From positions 182,191,250 to 182,255,249 of the forward strand of contig NC_092375.1 of the NCBI RefSeq assembly GCF_030028105.1: 64,000 nt of DNA, given 5' to 3'. The notes beneath the pieces were generated by a model. The model searched no databases. It was given only the letters and a program-made list of their open reading frames with translations, and was not told the DNA's origin. Of this stretch, positions 15,895 to 61,411 are shown one piece after another. Both the position numbers and the translations under genes were made by a program. The DNA comes from Mobula birostris. Lineage: Eukaryota. Every line of letters begins with the position of its first letter. Positions within the stretch are counted from its first letter, which is position 1.

Positions 15895-16530
15895 GAAAAG
15901 CAGAAAATACTGGAAACACTTATCAGGTCAGCCAGCAATCATGTAAAAAGTAGTGTTAACGTTTCAGTTTGATGACCCTCTGTCAGAGCTGGAACAGTAA
16001 GAAAATATGGAAGGGCTGTTGGAAAGGATGGGGAATATTGCTGCTCGGGTGCGGCCAAGAATGCAGAGATGATCAGTTATTGATGAGGTTACTTGATTGA
16101 TGGATTAATAAAATGTAATTAGGGAGAAAGAAAAGGCACATGTAAACGTTACAAAATGTCGGACAAGCAGTATGTAGCTACAAGAACTTTTATCTCATTA
16201 GGCATTGTTAATTATTTGAATTCATAATGCAGATGGATAATCTTAGCAGAGCAACACAAACAAAATGCTGAAGAACTCAACAGGTCAGGCAGCACCTACA
16301 GAAGTGAATCAACAGTGGACATTGGAAGCTGAGGTTCTTCCTCAGGACTGCAGAGGAAAGGGGAAGACACTAACTTGTTTTCTTACTGTCTCAGCTTTGA
16401 CGAAGGGTCACCAAACTGCAACATTAACACTATTTTTACCTGATGACCGTTTTCAGTATATTCTGCCATCTTCCCACTTCCTTTCCAGTCCTAATGAAAG
16501 GGCTTGGCCCAAAATGTCGGTTGTTTCTGC
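15895..16530. mobile_element. Decayed Penelope-like terminal fragments with degenerate hammerhead motifs
   Basis: Several diverged copies of the atgctggag-aactcagcaggtcaggcagca and ctgatgaagggtc...gaaacgt module in both orientations. Confidence 0.6.
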
Positions 16531-17379
16531 AGAACCTCTCATGCTTATAATCTTAGCAGAACTGTCCTGCTCTTGTACAACAAGAAAGTGAGATTTTCTG
16601 AAATTGTTGAATTTGATACCGAGTCCTGATATACAGGTAGAGGAGGAAATGCTGATGTTGAGTTTTGTTAGAACAATGCAGGATGGCATAGGCAGATAGA
16701 TCAGATTGGGTGTGATGAGGATGGTAAGGACCCAAGTGCTGGAATATCCGAAACTAAAACTGAGGCACAGTTTCAAGACTGAGATGAGAACAGAGATCTT
16801 GACTAGATGGTAGTCGAGAACCTGGTGAGGCTAGATGGGAATCCAAATGAGACAGAAATCCTGAATATAATTGCAGACTGAACCAAGGTTCTGATGAACG
16901 AGCAGCGAAACTAAGATCAGGTGCTCGTTAAGTAGTCAAACCTTGGTGCCAAAACATGGCCGCCAATTAGCAGAGTGGGCTAGAATATTTAAAGATACGG
17001 TGCCAGCTATTCATATTCCAGAGAATTGGAGCATCTAAACCCCAGAGGTTGGCGTAGTCAGGTGTGTATTGTAATACTGGGACTGGAATGGAAAATTAGA
17101 GCAATTATTTATTCCCTTTATCCAAGCTATCCCTCCCTCACCCTCCTTGTTACTTAAAACTGTTTCATTTTCTCTTTTTCCCAATTCTAACAAAAGACCT
17201 TCAAACTAAACAGTAATGATTTTTGTCTCCATGGGCACTGTCTGACCTGATTGTCTCCAGCAGTTTATGTTTTGTCTGTTGATTTCAAGCATCTGTAATT
17301 TTGATTTAAATTTACATCAGTCTGCAATCCTGCATGGGACATTTAGTCATCATAATGATGGGACAAGGGTTTCTTAGTT

Positions 17380-21054: not shown

Positions 21055-21445
21055 TAGACACAAGAGATTCTGTAGATGCTGCAAATTTTGAGCAACAGAC
21101 ACAAAATGCTTGAGATACTCAGCAGGTCAGGCAGCAACTATGGTGAGAAATAAATAGTTGACGTATTCGTAGCTCGGATTGAGGTGTTCACTGAGCTTGG
21201 CAATTAGCCTGCAGACGTTTCATCACCAGTCAAGGTGGCATCCTCGACTGCGCACTAAGGATGTCACCTCAACTAGTGATGAGACGTCGGCCATCTAACT
21301 GCCAAGCTCGGTGAACAGTACAACATCAAATACTCAGTGTTTCGGACCGATGATGTGTCTATGCCAAAATGTTGACTGTTTATTTCAGATGCAGCCTGAC
21401 CTGCTGTCCCTCCAGCATTTTGTGTGTATTGCTCAAAATTTCTTT
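21055..21445. mobile_element. Nested Penelope-like palindromes carrying hammerhead-derived motifs
   Basis: Outer inverted arms 21083-21164 and 21369-21441; inner inverted arms 21185-21317 centred on TGCGCA at 21249-21254. Confidence 0.8.
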
Positions 21446-24176: not shown

Positions 24177-25366
24177 GAGCTAATTCCAGGGATAAGAATA
24201 TTTGCAGCTGAAGGCACTATCCCAGTCCTGGAATATAAAAATGCTTAATAGGTCAGAAGGAACAATGTAGAAATGGGAGATTGTGGAGATAGAGAGAAGC
24301 ATGTCAAAGGAAGAATTTGAAAACGTGGATTGAGTATTTTTAAAATCTTGCTTAACCCAGCAAGTACAGAAAGCTGGTGATTATGATTGTTGCACGTCAG
24401 TATGTGAGCTCTGTTCCTCAGGCCTCCAAGCAAGAAGTGAATTAAAATATTGAAGCTTTGAGGTAACAAAGGCATGTGTCAGTGTTTCAATAATAGCTGA
24501 ATCAGGGATAGAATCAGGTAGAAATGTAGAAATGAAAGGTGGGCAGTCTTAGTAATGAGCTGAATGTAACACTTAAAATTCAATTTAGGATTAAATAGAG
24601 TAGATTGGTTTGGATTTAGATAAAAAGGAATATGAACCAATGTCTTCTCAAAACTTAGCTGGAAAAATATTCTGTTCATCAATGTTAAATATTGGTCAGT
24701 CTAACAAATTAAAATAGTTAATGAATCAATGGTGAAAGCAAGATAAAATTGAATGTCTTCTGAGTATGATTAGAAACTGATGTCAATCTTTATAATAATG
24801 TTTTTTTCTTGAGACATTGTAAGTGTTGTTTACTTTGATGTACTTTTGCACATTTTGGATAATAATAATAAGATTTGAAAAGGAAGAAAGAAACTGATTT
24901 CATATAGTATATCTTGCTGCTGAGGGACATCATGCAGGTGAGAAGAAAGAAATGTAATTTGTGGTGTGCCAGAATAGCATAGAAGTGGGTAGAGAAGAAC
25001 TCATGTGATTTTCTGACCATGATGGAGAGGTACTATCCCATCTAGCTGAAAAACTAGTGGGCGGAGACTGGAATAGAATGCTTTCATGGTCACTGTAGGC
25101 AGGTTAAGGGTCATCTTGGTAACATTCATAGAGCATGCTAGTTTGGTGCAGTGGCAGGGTAGAAACACGACTGGAGATCTTCAAATATGGAAGTGCAATA
25201 AATATAGCCTCCAACTTAGGAAGTTGGCATATGTTAAGACCCTTAATGAGGAATGGGAGATACAAAATGGGGCCATGGCTTGCAAGAATAGGAGGAAAGA
25301 AAGTACATTTCTGAGGAGAGAGATCAGAGTGATAGATTTGACATAGAAGATAGTTCCTAAGGAGAT

Positions 25367-26290
25367 GAACACACACGAGATGCTGGAGGAACTCAGCAGG
25401 TCATGCAGTATCAATGGAAATGAATAAACAGTCAATGTTTTGGGCTGGACACTTCTAGAAAGGAAGGGGAAAGAAGCCAGAATAAGCAGTTGGGGAGGGG
25501 AAGGGATACAAGCCAGAAGGTGATAGGTGAAGCCAGGTTGGTGAGGAGGAAATGAGAAGCAGGGAGATGATAGAGGGGAAGGTAAAGGGCTGGAGAGGAA
25601 GGAATCTGATAGGAGAGGAGAGTGGACCATGGGAGAAAGGGAAGGAGGACCGATACAAGGGGGAGGTGATAGGCAGGTGAGGAAAAGAGGAGAGGTGAGA
25701 GGGGAGTAGTAGTGGGAATGGAAGAGGGAAAATTACTGGAAGTTGAAGAAATCAATGTTCAGGACATCAGGTTGGAGGCTACCCAGATGGAATATGGTGT
25801 TATTCCTCAAACCTGAGAGTAACCTCATAGTGACAGTAGAGGAGGCCATGAACTGACGTGTCAGAATGGAAATAAGGATAGGAATTAAAATGGTTGGACA
25901 CAGAAATACTGGTTGGACACTGAGAAATACTGATTTTTGCAAATGGAGCAAAAAATGCTCAACAATGTGGTCCCCCAATCTACATTGGGTCTCACCAATA
26001 TAGATCAGACTTCATCGGGAGCACCAGATACATCAGATAATCCCAGTAGATTCACAGGGAAGTGCTGCCTAACCTAGAAGGACTATTTAGGGCCCTGAGT
26101 GGAGGTGAACGGGCAGGTGTAGCACTTCTGCTTACAGGCATAAGTGCCAGGAGGGAGATTAGTGAGGAGGGCCAAATAGTCAAGGGCATCATGGAGGGAG
26201 CAATCTTTGTGGAAAACAGAGCAGGATTGGAGGTGGGGGTGGTAAAGGTATGGCTGGTGGTAAGATCCTGTTGAATGACGTGCTGGATGC
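25367..26290 (-). mobile_element. Penelope-like element 3' region: GIY-YIG endonuclease remnant plus terminal repeat
   Basis: Frameshifted CYTCPF..GPK.SF.VRQHF...YIGETQ..LGD.IVEH...IFHLGSLQPDVLNIDFFNF, followed by a pyrimidine-rich UTR and the decayed hammerhead module. Confidence 0.85.
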
Positions 26291-26505
26291 AAAGGCTCAT
26301 GGGGTGGTAGGTGATTAATGTATTAATAATGTCAGCATACATATGAACAGGACAGCTGGTGGGCATTTCAATGGAGCAGCAACACAGTCTCAGGGGCAAA
26401 AAGAGTTTTCATAGATTGCCACGGAAGAACAACTGAAATAGCAGATATCCTGAGGAACCCATTTCCAAAACTAAAAACACATGGTCATTAATATACACCT
26501 TAATA

Positions 26506-27854: not shown

Positions 27855-28600
27855 AGGACTAGAATATAAAATCAACGATATAATGTTGAGGCTTTATAAA
27901 GAACTGGTATGGACTCACTTAGAGTATAGTGAGCAATTTTGGGCCTGTTATCTAAGAAGGGATATGCTGACATTGGAGAGGGTTCAAAGGAGGTTCACGA
28001 GATGGATTCTGAGATTGAAAGGCTTGTCACATGACAAACGTTTTATAGCTCTGGTCTGTACTCACTGGTAGTCAAAAGAATGAGGGGTGAACTCATTGAA
28101 ACCTATTGAATGTTGAAAGAAACTCAGCGGGCCAGGCAGCGTTTATGGAAAAGAGTAAGCAGTCAGTGTTTCAGGCTGAGACCCTTCAACGGGACTGTCT
28201 TGGACTGAAACATTGACTGTTTACTCTGTTCCATAGAAGCTGCCTGGCCTGCTGAGTTCCTCTAGCATTTTGGATGCGTTGTTTGGATGTCCAGCATCTT
28301 TATATTTTCTCGTGAATGGACACGGAAAGGTTGTTTCCTATCATGGAGGAGTCTAAGACCAGAGGACACAGCCACAGAATAGAGGGGTGTACTTTTAGAA
28401 TGGAGACAAGGAAGAACTTCTTTATCCACAGGCAGCTGTGGAAGCCAAGTTACTTAGAGCAAAGGTTGACAGATTCTTGATTAGTCAGGGCATGAAAGGA
28501 TACAGGGAGAAGGCAGGAGACTGGAGCTGAGAAGGAAATGGCTCAGCAATAATGAAATGGTGGAGTAGACTTCTTCTAGTTCTCCTATATCTTATGATCT
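27855..28600 (+). mobile_element. CR1 3' fragment interrupted by a Penelope-like palindrome (28112-28314)
   Basis: LYKELVWTHLEY and LERVQRRFT motifs; inserted inverted arms aactcagcgggccaggcagc / gctgcctggcctgctgagtt. Confidence 0.8.
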
Positions 28601-40617: not shown

Positions 40618-40815
40618 GAAGTTTATTTTGTGCTTTCCATCTTAGATGCTATTGAATTTTAGACAGTTAAGCTATTACTTCTATTCAGATAGGTTCAATA
40701 TTTCAAACTAGTGTTGGTATGTGCATTCATTTCATTAAAATTCCTGTCACAAACATGAGTAGAGATTAATTCCACGCATTGTAGATAAAAAAGAAAGAAA
40801 ACTTCTTTATCCTAC

Positions 40816-41046
40816 CATCTTTGCGATAGTATATGACATTGACTTTCCTTTCTTCTGAGCCTAGCAGAGCCTGAGCAATCTGGGCAATAGCATTCCGCTT
40901 GCTTTCTGGGCCATGCAGAAAATCACATGTACATGGCTTCTGCATGATATCTGGCCTTGAGAAGCCCGTCATTTCACAAAATCCATCATTGCAGTAAATA
41001 ATTGCACAGTTCTGTACCCTTGCGTTCGCAATGATGAATTTTCTAT
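40816..41046 (-). CDS. KCNH7: KCNH7 exon 2, PAS domain
   Basis: Polypyrimidine tract plus cacag acceptor, 231 nt, gtagga donor. Translates (N)[76 protein letters not shown](G). Phase joins exon 1 (A|AT = Asn). [16 protein letters not shown] and QKP match ERG3 rather than ERG1. Confidence 0.96.
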
Positions 41047-41306
41047 CTGTGAAGAAAGAAGAGATAAAAAAAAAACAAATTAAGGGAGCTATAATACACT
41101 AGTGTTGCTACTCCTCTTGGCTAATGATTAGCAAACTGTCATCAGTTACAAGTAACATTAACAATAGGCCACACCACAAGGATTTTACAAGAGGTCTTTA
41201 TTGCTTGCAAATTTTATTAAATCCTTAAAATAACAGTAGAAAAAATACATTTTATACTTAACAGATATTCACTATCAATGAAGATAAATGAAATCAAATT
41301 TCAGTA

Positions 41307-50780: not shown

Positions 50781-52500
50781 GTCTACAACATTGACAGTGA
50801 CCAAGCATTAACAACTTTTTCAAGCCACGTAGCATTGTACACTCCTTTGAGAGTAACATTTTCAAGTAGCAAAACTTCCTGCCTAGCTGAATACAATAAG
50901 CACTGAACTGTCGGAACCCAGGAGATCCAACTGCTGTGCACCTGTTGGTGACTGGGAAGCCAGCCAACCATGTCATGTGAGAAGGGACAAAGAGCTCATG
51001 TGCTTTTTCACAGCCCAAGTTAAACTTCATAATGCACTGAAAAAGCAAAATGACTGAGCATTTGTTCAAAACAACACAGATGAAATTCGCTTGCACAATA
51101 GACTGGTTTGATAATGGGGCTTCAACATAATTTAGTTGTACAGGCCCCTTTAGAACAGTCTCTTTCAAAATGCTAGGATGGATTCTCCTACAGCTGAAGC
51201 TGTTGACAGCAATCAGCAATGGACTTGTTCAGAAACAGCCATGGTTGCCAAATATGAGAAACAGAAGGGGGAAATCAGCTGAAGTTTTTAAACAAATGTT
51301 ATGAGATTTAATTTAGTATCTAACAATGCTGTAATTTAGTAGAACTGTTTGGTGCTGAAATAAGGAAAATTCTCCTATGCTTAGTAATAACACCTCTTTA
51401 ATGATCTTGAATATTTAACACCTTCAACATCAATTTTAGAAGACTTTTAGATGAACAATGTAACACAGTAATGAACAGGGCAGATGTCTGCCTACAGGCG
51501 ACTTGTGCTATTCCTCGTTTTACCCTGACAGATAGGTTAACATGAAAACTGAGTCAACTTTCTTGTAATGTTTATGAAGTTGACATCATAAGGTTCAGAT
51601 GTTGAAGCTCTTGCATGCTTTCATAAGTATTGGCAAAGATATCATAATAATGCCAAAAAATATTGGAAGTACTCAACAAATCAGCCAATAGTAGTGGTGA
51701 GAAATAGGATAAACATTTCAGGCTGATGCCCTTTCTTCTAGAAGGAAGAACTGTGTTCCCTGTTTGTTCACAGAAAATATAATGAACCTGAGTTTACATT
51801 CAAAGAACTTGCATTTAGTATAGGTCAATGATTCTGGAAGTCATCTTATCTCATATAGGCAAAGATTATGTGGGAAATTTTATACTCCTCATCCATATTC
51901 TTAGTCATGGACCAACATTGCCAAACCTTTAACTATCATAAAGAGAAGATACATATTACTTCTGTTTAGCTGGGCTAGTTGTAACCTTGGGAACAAATCC
52001 TGGATGTAAATCCACTGTATCACTTAATTTACTTGGTGAAAAAATGGTACAACTTTGTTTATAACTAAAGTGTCATTAGAGAAAAAAAAATCCTCCTGTT
52101 TTATATAGAAGCACATGGCATAATAGTCTTCACTTGTCAGGGAGTACCGTTTGCTAATGCTCAGTTTGTATTTATACTCTTTCAAATTAGAGTTTATTCC
52201 TGGAAACTGGTTGGTTTCGTCGTCTGGTGGGACTGATGCTAAATTATATAAACGATACAGAGACGTAGCGACTTACGTTGGATTTCCAAAACAATAGTGA
52301 TATGGCCGATTATTATTTGAATTTTGTAAAGAAAGCCAAACATAAAAATAAAGCTATATTGACAATACTACCCCGCCTTTACAATAATCTTTGTATTTTC
52401 TCAAACACCGAAAGATTAATTGCCGAAGGACGCAAAACCTGCCGCCACACATTCAGATTAATTGGACCTTGAAATTTTGCAGAAAGTATGTTTATTTTTA

Positions 52501-52653
<153 letters not shown>

Positions 52654-52675
52654 TCAGCCACTCTGCCTCCCTTTG

Positions 52676-52830
52676 TCAGAAAAGCATCATCAACAACACA
52701 GCCTTTTTCCGCTCTCCAAAACCAGACCGCCCGCCAACATCTACAACTCAGGGTCCCCCAGCAGAGCCAGGCACCGGCGCAGAGGACAATTAACAATATA
52801 TCCCGATCCACACTCTCGGAACAAAAGCAT
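52676..52830 (-). other. Three consecutive upstream ORFs in the putative 5'UTR
   Basis: uORF1 52830-52741 (MLLFRECGSGYIVNCPLRRCLALLGDPEL*), uORF2 52740-52690 (MLAGGLVLESGKRLCC*), uORF3 52690-52676 (MMLF*). Only relevant if the TSS lies upstream of them. Confidence 0.5.
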
Positions 52831-53124
52831 TGCAAATGTTCGGAAGGAGCTACTCCTTTCAAAACGCTGAGGTGCTGCTGAACGGAAGATATCAGCAGTT
52901 CTGAGCCTGGGCGACGCTTCCCTTAGCTCTACACGCAGCTCTGATTACCAAAGCGTATCTCTGTACAACTGATCGCTACCCATTCTACTTAACGTTGGAA
53001 ATCAGATTCAGCGATCAGTACATGGGATTAAAAGCAAAGAAGGGAAAAGGGGTGGCCACACCATTGGTTCGCAAAGTCAAGGCAGTAAATACTTGTGAAA
53101 ACAATCACCGCTGTTAATTTGCTG

Positions 53125-53145
53125 ATAGCTGTCCATGGTGCTGAA
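53125..53145 (-). promoter_or_regulatory. RE1/NRSE (REST-binding) element
   Basis: Minus strand TTCAGCACC-AT-GGACAG-CTAT: both half-sites perfect with the canonical 2-bp spacer, about 550 bp upstream of the ATG of a neuronal channel gene. Confidence 0.88.
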
Positions 53146-54018
53146 CACAACTCCAATTTAATTTGAAATGGCGCAGGTGTTTCAGAAAAGTAAAGTAGAT
53201 CTATCCATACATAAGCAGTTAAAACATACAAGCAACTAAATAGAAATGTGCTATTAATATGTAAACGAAATAGGGCTGTCTTTGGAGTAGGAGAATAGGA
53301 ATGGCGTCAAGTGTAATCTTGAGAACACGTTCGATCCCCAAATAAAGGAGATGAATTTAGCAATTAAGAACAAGTTAAAAATCGTAGACCAGGAACTGCT
53401 AAACAAATTGACATTGATGAATGTTATTTAGCCGTGTGCTATTCAAGTAATCTGATGGAATTTAGAGTTTAATATGTATGTTATTCCATGTGAACCAAGA
53501 AACCAATTGCAAGTGCTATCTCGATTGTACCTTCAGGTAAAACAGTTCAGCTGAGTGTTGTTAGAAATGAAACGCCACCAAGGTGCTGGCAATAAATAAT
53601 CAATTAAAGGAATAATCATAACGTTGTCGCGCCCAGGCTTAAGAATTACCGATAGTTTAGAACACTTAAAAATGAACTTCACTTAAAAATTCCCCAAGTC
53701 GCCAATGATAGGCAACTTAGATTGAATCACTGGATTGTTTAAATGATGCGATAGATTCGAAGGCATAAATTGATACAGTTCTCATCTTGCTAAATGGGAA
53801 TGTAGATGTAGCAAGACATTCGAGTGTACTTTGAGAGTGTAATTTTCTGTTTGCTTCAGTCTCCGACCTTTTAGGGAAAATCCCGAATGATTCAAATACA
53901 CTTTCCATTTCAGTAGTGGAAGTTGAAGTAAATATAACAGAGAAGCCAATGATAGAAGTTGATTTTTTTCTGAATAAAGGGTGATAGAGCAGTCTGAACC
54001 CGATCACTGTTGAAACCT

Positions 54019-54058
54019 CAAACATGAGGAAATCTGCAGATGCTGGAATTTCAAGCAA
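54019..54058 (-). mobile_element. 40-bp Penelope-like 3'-terminal insertion with 14-bp TSD
   Basis: caaacatgaggaaatctgcagatgctggaatttcaagcaa flanked by cactgttgaaacct at 54005-54018 and 54059-54072. Confidence 0.85.
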
Positions 54059-54213
54059 CACTGTTGAAACCTGTTTTTTTTCTTTCTAATAATCTGCCTC
54101 ATCTTTCTTAAACTATTTTCTCACTTTTTATTGGCAGTGTCAAATTTATGATTCCCTGTCAGGATGAAATTATATCTTTATCTCTATTTCAGTTTCAAAG
54201 CTTAAAAAAGTTG

Positions 54214-55540: not shown

Positions 55541-57667
55541 GTGACATACCAAATCTGCTCACATTCCTAATGAAGTAGAGCCTCTGCTGTGCCTTCTTCA
55601 TGACTGTGTCAATGTGTTTGGCTCAGGATAGATCCTCCGAGACATGGAAGGAAAGTCATGCTTGACTTATCTCCTTGAGGTGTGACTGGTAAAATGGACA
55701 AGAGAGAAACCAGTGGTGGTCTGTTGAGATTTTTAAAAAGGTTTTAATGATATCCCACACAGGAGGTTGGAACATATGCAATTACACGTGCAGGTTCAGG
55801 AACAGTTATTGCCCCTCAACCATCAGGCTTTGAACTTGAGATGTCAGAATGGGAATGGGGATTCGAATGAAAATGGTTGGCCACCAGGAAATCCTGCTTG
55901 TTGTGGATGGAGCAAAGGTGCTCATTATAAAATGCTGAATTCTCTTTTCTCTGGAAATATTTCTAATATCATAAGCCCATCCCAAAGGTATAGTTTCCAA
56001 TCCTGAGCCTGGAGATTTTGTGCCATATACTTTGACTCAATTATGAATTCTATACTGCTGAAAGAAGGGGGCAATCCAGTCAGTTGCCATTTAATGTGTG
56101 TTCTTATTTCTAGTTGCCTTCACTCTCCCAAAGGTAGATCATTACTATTATTAACACTGATTTGCACATGCTACCTGCATCCCTATTCTACTGCTCTGTC
56201 TTTGTCAACCTCATGTCCTCTTCAACTAAAGACTATTAACTTCCAGCTGCACTAACACATTCATCCTCAGTCCTGTCTCAGTCTGTCTGCCACTGTCATC
56301 TATACTATTGTTACTTCCAGTCTCCACTATTTTAATGTTTTTTTGGTCAGTATTCCCATTACTATTCTGATGATTTAAGTTCATCCAAAATTCTATAGTT
56401 CTGCTCAGCAGTTCTCTATTTGCTGATCTACAATGAAACTCGGTCGTTTTTAATAAGTATAACATCATGTGCAAATTCTGCCATATCTTCAACTACAGCA
56501 ACCTATTATCTTGTAAGTCACACTGAAATTCCCATTGACATCCTTATCTTGAAAACTGGCCTTCAAATTTGACCTCTTTGAACAAGATTTAATCCATCTC
56601 CTGCTTATATCTGTGAAGTAACATTGAATATGTTACCCCATTAGAGATCCCAATGAAGAAACTGTCATTAAACATTCCCGAAATCTTTCATTCTCTTTAG
56701 TAATAGCTTTTGTTGTTATAAGAATGGAAATTGCATTCCTTATTTCCAAATCCAAATCCTCAAATGTATTGAGAATAAACTTAGACTTTGCACTGACATC
56801 TAGGAAAATTAATCTGTGCAAGGTTTCCATTAGCAAGGTCTCTCATTCTATTTTAAAAAGATATTCTATCTCAAAAACTATTAGATTCCTTTAGCAGCAA
56901 TTACTAGAAGCAGTGTTATTAAGTTCCATCATATAATACTACTCAGGAAGCAGATATACTAATATCCTGCTCTAGTCGCATGTATCTTCTCAGCTTTGAC
57001 CTTAGAAAGCAGCTCTTAAAGGGTCACACCACAAAGCAAGCAGCACTTTTTCAGCTTCTGAAGAATATTTCAAGGAATGATTGAAGATGATAATATCATC
57101 TTTCCTTTGGTATCATGCAGTCTGTACAGAATAGTGTGTGCAACAGGAATCCTTCTCATGCAAAGACATTTCTGGCAGAAATCTCTACCAATTAGCTATC
57201 TTTCCAGTGCAGTCGACAGCTCCTTCCAGCTCTGAGTACAAAATTGCAATAACCAAAACTTGAAGGCTCCCCATAGTTATGGTTGAGATTAAAACAAAAA
57301 TCTACAATGCGTCAGTGGGCAGCAAAACTTGATCTCCTGTCAGAGGTAACAGTTCAGACTTCTCAGAGGGCAAGTGATTTTGAAAGTTGTCCGGGTTCCT
57401 GTGTAAGCTTGTGGTTGAGCTTTTGTGATCACACGTGCCAGGAATGACTTCCCTTATAGGCATTATTCAGAAGTGTTGATAATACCTAGCCAGTTTTGTA
57501 TCCATGGTATTAAAGTCCCTTTTATTCCATGGTCTTCAATATTAAAGATAAATATAGTTTGCATCATTTTATCAGTTATCTTTTTCGAAGTTCACATCAA
57601 CTGCATTGCTCCATTGACACTCTGTTTCTTCAACCAGAATTTCCATCAGGTTTGTTATTACTGTTTT

Positions 57668-58060
57668 ACATAGAAACCATAGACACCACAGCACAGAAAC
57701 AGGCCTTTTGGCCCTTTTTGGCTGTGCCGAACCATTTTCTGCCTAGTCCCACTGACCTGCACACGGATCATATCCCTCTATACACCTCCCATCCATGTAT
57801 CTGTCCAATTTATTCTTAAATGTTAAAAAAGAACCCGCACTTACCACCTCGTCTGGCAGCTCATTCCACACTCCCACAACTCTTTGTGTGAAGAAGCCCC
57901 CGCTAATATTCCCTTTAAACTTTTCCCCCCTCACCCTTAACCCATGTCCTCTGGTTTTTTTCTCCCCTTGCCTCAGTGGAAAAAGCCTGCTTGCATTCAC
58001 TCTATCTATACTCATCATAATTTTATATACCTCTATCAAATCTCCCCTCATTCTTCTAAA
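57668..58060 (-). mobile_element. Young CR1 3' end nested in an older CR1 remnant
   Basis: RRMRGDLIEVYKIM...TRGHGLRV...FTQRVVGVWN. Confidence 0.9.
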
Positions 58061-58589
58061 TGACGTGAAAAATGTTGAAACTCTGTGAAAATAGAATGAC
58101 ATGACTTATCTTTAACAAATCCATGCTGGCTTTCTTACATCAAACCACACTTACCAAGATAATTGTGAATATTGTCCCTGACTACTCCTTCAGCATCAGA
58201 ATCAGGTTTATTATTACTGTACTGACGTATGCCATGAACTTTGTTGTTTTGTGGCAGTACAGTGCAATACATAAACTATACTAAACATTACAATAAGAAA
58301 AATATATAAAAGAAAATTTGAAATGTAATGTAAAAATGGAGCAAAATCATGCGCTAGTGTTCCTGGGTTCAGGAACATTCAGAAATCTGAATAGTAGAAG
58401 GGAAGAAGCTGCTGATGAAATCTTGAACGTGTGCCTCTGTTGGTAGTAATGAGAAGAGGGCAGATCCTGGGTGGTGGGGATTCTTAATGACAGGTGCTGC
58501 CTTTTTAAGGCATCACCTTTTGAAAATGCAACACACATCAAAGTTGCTGGTGAACACAGCAGGCCAGGCAGCATCTCTAGGAAGAGGTA

Positions 58590-58627
58590 CAGTCAACGTT
58601 TCAGGCCGAGACCCTTCGTCAGGACTA
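58590..58627 (-). ncRNA. Minimal type I hammerhead ribozyme, inverted copy
   Basis: UAGUC-CUGACGA-A-GGGU(CUCG)GCCU-GAAA-CG-UU^GACUG; core intact, GUU triplet, G-U closing pair in stem II. Confidence 0.65.
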
Positions 58628-59149
58628 ACTGAAAGAAGAGCTAGTAAGAGATTTGACAGTGGGAAGGGGAGGGAAGATCTGAAATGACCACACATTTTAA
58701 TTCCACGTCCCATTCCCATTCTGATATGTCTATCACGGCCTCCTCTACTGTAAAGATGAAGCCACGCTCAGGTTGGAGGAACAACACCTTATATTCCGTC
58801 TCGGTAGCCTCCAACCTGATGGCATGAACATTGACTTCTCAAACTTCCGCTAATGCCCCACTTCCCCCTCGTACCCCATCTGTTATTTATTTACATACAC
58901 ACATTCTTTTTGTCGCTCTCCTTTTCTCCCTCTGTCCCTCTCACTATACCCCTTGCCCTTCCTCTGTGCTTTCCCCCCTCCCCCTTTTCTTTCTCCCTAG
59001 GCCTCCTGTCCCATGATCCTCTCATAACGCTTTTGCCAATCACCTGTCCAGCTCTTGGCTCTATCCCTCCCCTTCCATTCTTCTCCTATCTTTTTGGATC
59101 TCCCCCTCCCCCTCCCACTTTCAAATCTCTCACTAGCCCTTCCTTCAGT

Positions 59150-59187
59150 TAGTCCTGATGAAGGGTCTCGGCCCGAAACGTCGACTG
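59150..59187 (+). ncRNA. Minimal type I hammerhead ribozyme (Penelope-type)
   Basis: UAGUC-CUGAUGA-A-GGGU(CUCG)GCCC-GAAA-CG-UC^GACUG: intact core, stem I, stem II with tetraloop, and a palindromic ACGU stem III suited to dimer formation. Predicted cleavage after 59182. Confidence 0.8.
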
Positions 59188-60242
59188 TACCTCTTCCTAG
59201 AGGTGCTGCCTGGCCTGCTGTGTTCACCAGCAACTTTTATGTGTGTTGCTTGAATTTCCAGTATCTGCAGATTTCCTTGTGTTTGACCTTTTGAAAATGT
59301 CCTCAATGGAGGGGGTGGGGGTCTAGTGCCTATGATGAAGCTGGCTGAGTTTACAACTCTCTGCAGCTTTTTCTAATCCAGTGTAAAGGCTCCCCCATTC
59401 CAGATGGTGATGCAACCAGCTAGAATGCTCTCCACAGTATAGACTGAATCTCTTCAAAGTCGTAATAGAATATAGCCACTGCTGTGCCTGCTCGGTAATT
59501 GCATTAATATGTTTGGCCCAGGATAGGTCCTCAGAGATGTTGACACCCAGGAACTTGAAGTTGCTCACCTCTCCACTGCTGGCCCCTCAGTGAGGATTGG
59601 TGTGTGTTCCATCGGCTTCACCTTCCTGAAGTACACAATCAATTCCTTAGTATTACTGAGCTGAGTGCAAGGTTGTTGTTGTGGCAGCATTCAACTAGCC
59701 GATCTACCTTAAACATGAGAAAATCTGCAGATGCTGGAAAGAAAGAAATAATAATAATAAATAAATAAACAATAAATATTGAGAACATGAGGTGTCCTTG
59801 AAAGTGAGTCCATAGCTTATGTGAACATCTCAATGATGGGCAAGTGAGGTTGAGTGAAGTTATCCCCTTTGGTTCAAGAAGGTTGAGGGGTAATAACTCT
59901 TTTTGAAACTGGTGGTGTGAGGACTATTGTACCTTCTTCCTGATGATGGATGCTGCTTTCCTGTGACAGTGTTTCATGCAGAGGTGATGTGCTCAATGGT
60001 TGGGAGAGCTTTACCTATAATGTGCTAGGCTGTATTCATTACTTTTCGTAATGTTAAGGTATAAGAAAATTCTGCACCCTAAGCAGGCTAACTTCCTAAG
60101 AGATGTAAAATAAATGTTTAATATCATTTTAGCATGATTTTTTGTCTTTTAAAATATTCCAATATGTTGGAAAATAATTTATAGGCCATGATTTCCAGCC
60201 ATTCTCCAATGCAAAAAAAAACATTGATTTAACAGCCAGTCA

Positions 60243-60600
60243 TAAACACAAGAAATTCTGCCTATGCTGGATATCCAAAGCGACACACACAAAATGCTGG
60301 AGAAAATCAGCAGTTTGACAGCATCTATGATAATGAATAACCAGTCAACATTTCAGGCTGAGACCCTTCTTCAAGACTGAAAAGGAAGGGGGAAGGCACC
60401 AGGATAAAAGTAATAAAATAATAAAAAGGAGAAGGGAAGGGGGCTTGCTGGAAGTTGATAGGTGAAGCCAAGTGGGTGGGAAAGGTAATGGGCTGGAGAA
60501 GAAGGAATCTGATAGGAGAGGGGAGTGGACCACAGGAGAAAGGGAAGGAAATGGGGCACCAGAGGGAGGTGATAGGCAGGTGAGAAGAGGTAAGAGGCCA
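60243..60600 (-). mobile_element. Penelope-like terminal repeat, hammerhead degenerate
   Basis: Same module as 25367 and 59285; core reads ttgaagaa...gaaatgtt. Confidence 0.8.
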
Positions 60601-61226
60601 GCCTACTCACCTGTCTATCATCTCTCCTTCATGCCCCTCCCCCTGGCCCATGTACTTCTAAACATCTGCAGATTTTATCATATGTTAGATATTTTGATTG
60701 TTTACATGTAAATAACACGAGACATAATTGATTAGAGTTACCCAACTTTTTTTTCCCCTTCGCTTCAAAGAAGTTTATCATTGGTTTGAACTTTAATTGA
60801 TATGTTTAATATTTTGGAGAAAAAATCTTTTTCAAGAACATTTCACATGCTCCTCCTTTATAGACTCTTGTAAAAAGCCATCAAAATACAAGGAATTTTA
60901 ACTCCTTACATGTAAAACGAGAGGATGGAATTACTACCCAACAAGCGAGAAACATTATTTTACTGATGGTATACCTTACTTGGGTAACCTTAATTCTGCA
61001 GCAGTCTGTGCGCAGTTAAAAGTTTATTGAAAGCATTCCCTTTCATGCACTTGAAGGCGGATTAGTTGCAGACATGAGCAATAAATTGTAATGCTCCACT
61101 TATGAAGTCAATGTTAGTAATGGTTTAATGAACACAGTACATTCATCATCACCCTGATGTGCATAATACTCCAACACTGTCAAACTGACCATTTACCTGT
61201 ACTGCAAACATCAATCTTCACACCAA

Positions 61227-61368
61227 ACAAAAGGAATTCTGCAGATGCTGGAAATTCAAGCAACACACATAAAAGTTGCTGGTGAACGCAGCAGGCCAGG
61301 CAGCATCTCTAGGAAGAGGTGCTGCCCGGCCTGCTGCGTTCACCAGCAACTTTTATGTGTGTTGCTTG
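61227..61368. mobile_element. Penelope-derived fold-back mini-element with 14-bp TSD
   Basis: ~56-bp arms with 2 mismatches around an AGGA loop; TSD aatcttcacaccaa at 61213-61226 and 61369-61382. Confidence 0.92.
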
Positions 61369-61411
61369 AATCTTCACACCAACTTAGTTTGCACATGCAT
61401 ATAAGATGAGT

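Follow-up and report, generated by a model that had tools for sequence, protein, structure and literature searches.

The locus at positions 58515-59299 of the window, i.e. of the whole 64,000-nucleotide stretch that was analysed, is the truncated end of a Penelope-like retrotransposon (PLE) in a ray genome, a real but ordinary fossil. The neighbouring gene is KCNH7, with exons 1 and 2 on the minus strand at 52506-52581 and 40790-41050. The features of the insertion are the following:

58515-58528, no strand: left TSD, 14 bp, its last base common to the arm end
58529-58687, minus: inverted, 5'-truncated pLTR copy without tail
58590-58627, minus: left minimal type I hammerhead motif with complete core, G10.1.U11.1 and GUU triplet (CpG decay); predicted cut after 58595
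58684-58853, plus: end of the PLE ORF, about 56 codons and stop, C-terminal endonuclease part; GIY-YIG motif absent, frame change at about 58734
58854-59149, plus: pyrimidine-rich 3' UTR or 5' part of the pLTR, matched by read-through residues 370-412 of the PLE protein P0001
59089-59249, plus: direct pLTR arm, counterpart of the inverted copy
59136-59166, plus: predicted local hairpin, in which the tract 59136-59148 pairs with 59155-59166 (catalytic core and 5' strand of stem II)
59150-59187, plus: right minimal type I hammerhead motif with every consensus feature; predicted cut between 59182 and 59183
59250-59285, plus: PLE tail of 36 nt, on the right end only, 33/36 identical to the tail of a sister insertion at 61224-61259
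59286-59299, no strand: right TSD

Anatomy and surroundings of the insertion

The TSD, ACCTTTTGAAAATG, matches at 14 of 14 positions between 58515-58528 and 59286-59299, which upholds the claim of a perfect 14-bp repeat at both ends. Inside it, the inverted arms 58528-58673 and 59104-59249 are identical at 136 of 146 positions when compared without gaps, and a single gap extends the match to 58687/59089 (90.7% of 161). Of the ten differences (10/146, 6.8%), five are clustered in the 40 nt at the 5' end of the arm. At the head-to-head junction, the start of the ORF remnant overlaps the end of the inverted arm by a few bases (58684-58687). The right arm extends 36 nt beyond the left one (59250-59285), which is the one-sided tail of 30-40 nt of EN+ Penelope-like elements, and the direct and inverted pLTR copies and the 5' truncation at 58515-59299 also have the layout of this group. 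The original reading of the locus as an inserted Penelope-like element that carries minimal type I hammerheads is borne out. In both arms an open frame runs across the hammerhead, the pLTR end and the tail (59028-59294 on plus, 58513-58767 on minus); it has no protein match and may be due to chance.

The insertion had also been called young, and this can be kept in a relative sense only: the arms differ at those ten positions, and the 14-bp TSD is just as perfect in the insertion at 16237-16560, which is much more decayed. We dropped the perfect TSD as proof of youth. It says little on age, because at the arm divergence a 14/14 match has a chance of 0.37 and because the far more decayed insertion has one too.

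In the 422-aa protein P0001, the ORF remnant (58684-58853) corresponds to residues 314-369, a part that follows the GIY-YIG motif; the remnant shifts frame at about 58734. Its best protein matches come from Mobula hypostoma and Hypanus sabinus, and it is 88-91% identical to P0001 and to the Mobula hypostoma PLE protein. It has no Pfam match of its own, and RT and the GIY-YIG motif are missing from the copy. Thus, of the GIY-YIG C-terminus read at this place, the C-terminal endonuclease codons (about 56) are present, but they are frameshifted and the GIY-YIG motif itself is absent. The GIY-YIG Pfam stretch of P0001 covers residues 272-346 and is a weak match (E 4.6e-4, under the curated cut-off). 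P0001 has 85 longer relatives, most of them with an RT (PF00078); among the tblastn matches listed (best 40), their N-termini show no match to pLTR or tail. A CX4CxxC linker, outside the truncated copy itself, precedes the endonuclease in P0001 and P0002, and the linker pattern occurs in 60 of 87 scanned proteins. In the account of PMC8557442, a CX2-5CxxC linker between RT and EN defines the Neptune (or Nematis) clade. The linker sequence points to a place of the ray family toward Neptune or Nematis, which it does not separate from one another.

Concerning KCNH7, the exon 2 region is 99% identical to Mobula birostris KCNH7-like and to a Pristis protein; together with the matches of the ORF remnant, this makes a myliobatiform ray the likely host. 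Between the element, which is upstream of the gene, and the exon 1 ATG at 52581 on the minus strand are 5,934 bp, in line with the distance of about 6 kb that had been given. The CpG observed/expected ratio of 0.6-0.9 over 52001-54000 likely marks the KCNH7 promoter (island at 52-54 kb). The element, with the ATG 5.9 kb downstream of it, lies about 4.5 kb past this CpG island and so is likely outside the KCNH7 transcript. A word search of sequencing runs matched 24 runs, four of them with at least half of the words, and no RNA run was among the matches listed. A bacterial promoter and terminator scan of the locus was disregarded, as it addresses the wrong kind of organism.

Hammerhead motifs and their decay in older copies

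Each strand holds one motif, at 59150-59187 (plus) and 58590-58627 (minus), with the 5-bp stem I and at the coordinates originally predicted. Both contain 11/11 invariant core letters (CUGANGA...GAAA...UH), a stem I whose outer pair is U.G, a 4-bp stem II with the loop CUCG and one additional A in front of it, and an ACGU palindrome that replaces helix III. The right motif has stems I and II, the G10.1-C11.1 pair, the base between 9 and 10.1 and the palindromic 15.2-16.2. Its predicted cut after C59182 gives a 3' product from 59183, the product start that had been expected. In the left motif, G10.1.U11.1 stands for G-C and the cleavage triplet is GUU instead of GUC; both changes are C-to-T at CpG (C11.1 and C17). 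Therefore, of the two hammerheads described as intact, the right one is so in full and both cores are complete, but the left one carries these two changes. The G10.1-C11.1 pair is described as highly conserved (PMC4209133), and GUC and AUC are rated the most effective triplets, yet a GUU ribozyme was the best in the same study (PMC9217987). Because of its G.U pair at 10.1-11.1 and its GUU triplet, the left hammerhead is probably weakened, judging from the sequence, and not certainly dead.

Within the 64 kb a relaxed descriptor picked out exactly these two motifs, against zero in 30 Markov controls. When up to three mismatches were allowed, the family pattern matched three times, with 0.00 expected. 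An Rfam search of 57500-60500 (E up to 1) returned no hammerhead family and one chance match to a CRISPR repeat, a negative that has no weight against a minimal motif. The arrangement of a retrozyme, with at least two head-to-tail units and hammerheads on the same strand, was absent from the 64 kb. Scanning of viral contigs with the family pattern gave 0 copies. Twelve metagenome-contig loci with the pattern were dropped, as none aligned to the element (blastn) or to P0001 and P0002 (tblastn). Four of the metagenome loci (L002, L004, L007 and L009) show CUGANGA-hairpin-GAAAC motifs that are unrelated to the element, and some of these may be bacterial or phage hammerheads.

A lack of core conservation and of stem covariation across copies had been named as a refuting condition, and within the window the older copies tend to speak against the proposal. 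Ten older copies in the window span the hammerhead region, and an intact core is present in 0/10. Among their 90 stem cells, which come from decayed copies of the window only, 47 were the same, 10 changed on one side, 3 on both sides, 20 were broken and 10 were gaps. Core cells deviated from the column majority in 14/96 cases and downstream cells in 37/231 (non-CpG; Fisher p=0.87). The ten copies are few, belong to several subfamilies and were aligned pairwise by script, and these family statistics cover the 64 kb only; five further pieces were left out of the count, namely three in which the motif is incomplete, the left arm of the young insertion and one arm, the second, of its sister. The hammerhead decay of the older copies looks neutral and has the same rate as that of the neighbouring sequence. 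Decay of the kind that destroyed the older copies has taken its first CpG steps in the left copy. As far as the sequences indicate, a hammerhead common to the subfamilies fits constraint in active masters, with decay of the inserted copies. Over 61 nt the arms at 58515-59299 are only about 3% from the sister copy, so that their complete cores could reflect age as well as constraint, which a single locus does not distinguish.

Predicted folding of the transcripts

Read-through RNA of the full element folds to a long hairpin on both strands, with predicted MFE values of -336 and -379 kcal/mol and z of about -19 and -20 (20 shuffles each). This supports the claim that such an RNA carries its own antisense arm and would fold back. 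Whichever strand is transcribed, the antisense arm precedes the sense motif. In nearest-neighbour energies, which omit tertiary contacts, Mg2+ and proteins, the duplex of motif and antisense reached -67.7 and -71.6 kcal/mol versus -8.9 and -7.0 kcal/mol for the hammerhead fold. The predicted probability of stems I and II was 0.000 in all five read-through constructs and prefixes. One motif per strand precludes a dimer in cis. In trans, two bare 38-mers are predicted to be less stable when paired as a double hammerhead (-16.7) than as two monomers (-22.2). A decayed copy at 60342-60378 was considered as a minus-strand dimer partner and judged unlikely, as it has C3U and would also follow the antisense arm.

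These predictions bear directly on the proposal that, in read-through RNA, fold-back competes with dimeric self-cleavage and thereby tunes something near KCNH7. The complete cores, the strongly predicted fold-back and an ATG only 5.9 kb off are in line with it. However, such a competition would be one-sided and finds no support as a meaningful one: the 64 kb contain no intact partner on the same strand, and the antisense arm is made first on both strands, at the stem probability of zero given above. Moreover, the element is beyond the CpG island, the older copies decay at background rate, and minimal hammerheads cut poorly even when designed as dimers or trimers, as reported in PMC4209133. We regard this proposal as extremely improbable. 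The hammerheads are predicted to be locked in the long hairpin and are likely inert passengers rather than a KCNH7 switch.

If transcribed, the locus might instead matter as dsRNA of about 146 bp, a substrate of ADAR or siRNA that could silence the family, and not as a ribozyme. The duplex is long and nearly perfect in prediction on both strands, and several such fold-backs occur per 64 kb. Against this, the 10/146 arm differences weaken the duplex and nothing singles out this copy among many, so that we give this role an outside chance.

Escape from the fold-back is predicted solely for RNAs that start inside the element. Taken by itself, the right 38-mer folds as a hammerhead (predicted stem II P 0.90-1.00). 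Minus-strand RNA from 59080, one of two internal starts for the left copy, gave a stem II P of about 0.29 and a stem I P of about 0.16. It is conceivable that the right hammerhead cuts in such RNAs, aided by the family protein or by a partner copy in trans, as the fold of the 38-mer would allow. Promoter-like motifs are reported in pLTRs (PMC3846280), and the Anolis hammerhead is assisted by protein, cleaving only with its own (PMC11167929). Nevertheless, as soon as at least 14 nt of native 5' flank are included the core is predicted to be masked, the copy at 58515-59299 makes no protein, and the Anolis RNA-seq described in PMC11167929 has no reads starting or ending at the cut site. Such cleavage appears very unlikely to us.

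The masking comes from the upstream pyrimidine tract. When the 5' end is moved from 59136 to 59144-59146, the predicted stem II probability rises from about 0 to over 0.9. Of 1000 composition shuffles of the 20 nt upstream, 8 masked as strongly and 115 were under 0.05, and 4 of 51 other 20-mers of the UTR gave a stem II probability under 0.05. Pairing of tract and core is part of the minimum-energy fold in 5 of 9 related copies, which are non-independent. The tract ends in CAG/TAG, resembling a 3' splice acceptor; in Penelope of D. virilis, an intron is described as ending at the helix I 5' strand of the hammerhead (PMC4209133). The tract may act as a safety catch of the ray PLE, masking the catalytic core until splicing or protein binding would unmask the ribozyme. 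This is speculative and rather unlikely; the idea was formed post hoc, on one family, and it concerns the master element rather than the 58515-59299 locus. The masking hairpin bears on the open question of minimal PLE hammerheads that barely cut in vitro, and the safety catch, if true, would explain why they look dead there.

Related insertions and the origin of the inverted arms

Among the seven insertions examined in the window, four have an exact 14-bp TSD (16237, 54005, 58515 and 61213), and the other three have no TSD of at least 7 bp. One of these, the sister insertion at 61224-61368, belongs to the same young family and shows the same fold-back; it is identical to each arm at 59/61 positions and has no hammerhead. 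Its span of 61213-61382 consists of the tail and a near-perfect palindrome of the pLTR end, with a 14-bp TSD: AATCTTCACACCAA. At 54005-54072, a tail-only insertion (about 40 nt) lies between exact 14-bp TSDs; it borders the KCNH7 CpG island, and the ATG follows about 1.4 kb downstream. The insertion at 16237-16560 is an older fold-back that has a 14-bp TSD, and hammerheads in a decayed state are present in its two arms; between these arms is a third hammerhead-like piece, which resembles a copy at 15958-15986. Decayed fold-back insertions with a one-sided tail and no TSD of at least 7 bp were found at 28112-28315 and 21057-21442, the latter holding an unrelated inverted repeat at about 21185-21317. 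Longer and older remnants of related PLEs occupy 25184-26333 and 60244-60600; the remnant at 25-26 kb retains a degraded GIY-YIG motif and the cysteine linker (tblastn).

The point of inversion varies: it lies before the hammerhead at 61224-61368, inside the hammerhead at about 28197, and inside the ORF in the 58515 insertion. The short arm stops a few bases from the tail boundary in the 58515 insertion, at 16250 and at about 61371. The window contains a decay series of PLE hammerheads together with a recurring 14-bp TSD and a fixed tail boundary, and the latter two fit priming from both target strands. The locus itself is minor, being one of several such fossils per 64 kb.

A sequence of events that would produce this structure can be proposed. 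Firstly, the PLE endonuclease would nick both target strands 14 nt apart. Secondly, the 3'-OH of each flank would prime RT from one of two adjacent start sites on the pLTR RNA, one with the tail and one without it. The protein of the Anolis PLE is reported to cleave and extend both DNA strands, its RT begins at two neighbouring sites inside the RNA, which delimit the tail, and hammerhead mutants still insert (PMC11167929). One cDNA would have extended over about 600 nt, into the end of the ORF, and the second over about 160 nt; they would then have been joined head to head at about 58684-58687 over the few shared bases. The hammerhead is situated about 60-100 nt from the 3' end, and both cDNAs presumably happened to extend past it, leaving one motif per arm. 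Since the hammerheads lie in the pLTR and the pLTR is inverted, opposed pairs follow. A read-through transcript would then make the antisense arm first and trap the motif in a duplex of about 146 bp, and a transcript starting inside the element would have one motif, no cis partner and the local hairpin over its core, both according to the predicted folds.

Alternatively, the inverted arm may stem from self-priming on the antisense template, or from a second RNA molecule, and not from priming of one template at both flanks. Self-priming is favoured for head-to-head PLE junctions by Arkhipova et al. (PMC3846280), and half of the arm differences are in the 5'-most 40 nt. In addition, at the rate of 7e-10 per generation reported for the epaulette shark (PMC10587355), a 6.8% arm difference needs about 4-5e7 generations. 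This seems too long, so that some arm differences may predate the insertion and the templates may have been partly different; the figure, implausible as it is, was not adopted as an age. On the other side, two fixed RT starts predict a short arm that ends near the tail boundary, as in the three insertions named above, and the arms have in common a CpG-to-TpG state that is absent from the sister copy. We consider self-priming or a second template a real possibility, if on balance not the expected one; it alters the origin only and leaves the verdict unchanged.

Altogether, it is very probable that the locus is a 5'-truncated PLE insertion, made of an inverted repeat, a one-sided 36-nt tail and a 14-bp TSD, and that its opposed hammerheads are a likely inert by-product of insertion.

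Comparison with known systems

Non-LTR retrozymes, as presented in a preprint (bioRxiv 10.64898/2026.07.22.740005), have a type I hammerhead from the PLE pLTR like the ray locus, and one chondrichthyan is reported among them. They differ in forming head-to-tail tandems with at least two hammerheads on the same strand, whereas the ray locus, with one per strand, could not release unit-length RNA. In the case of the minimal type I hammerheads of metazoan PLEs (PMC4209133), the core, the extra base between 9 and 10.1, the short stem I, the palindromic 15.2-16.2 and the missing loop III are the same. Stem II is shorter in the ray, with 4 bp compared to 7-8 bp in Schistosoma, and the left ray copy is without G10.1-C11.1. 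The portion of PMC4209133 considered names no cartilaginous fish among the hosts of PLE hammerheads. Our search of the open literature found no paper on the ray family; a PLE hammerhead from a ray or shark may be among those listed in the supplements of PMC4209133 or of the 2026 preprint.

With the Poseidon element PAc of Anolis carolinensis (Frangieh et al. 2024, PMC11167929), the ray family has in common the tail signature, a hammerhead about 100 nt from the 3' end and an AT-rich target. It differs by its CX4CxxC linker, a Neptune/Nematis trait, and by an AUG in the right hammerhead that opens only 31 codons.

In layout, the ray insertion equals the published EN+ PLE form, in which a TSD encloses an inverted pLTR and one of the two ends bears a tail of 30-40 nt (Arkhipova et al. 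2013, PMC3846280; Craig et al. 2021, PMC8557442). The complex insertions described there have the same head-to-head inverted pLTR, 5' truncation, one-end tail (36 nt in the ray), TSD and pLTR hammerhead. In contrast to the rotifer examples, in which the TSD has 8-10 bp, that of the ray has 14 bp (4/7 insertions), and the ray copy is without nearly all of the ORF. In Schistosoma, dual minimal hammerheads on opposite strands, 100-700 bp apart, are described by Cervera and de la Pena (2014, PMC4209133). The opposed arrangement of hammerheads is therefore already in print in these three reports (PMC4209133, PMC3846280, PMC8557442).
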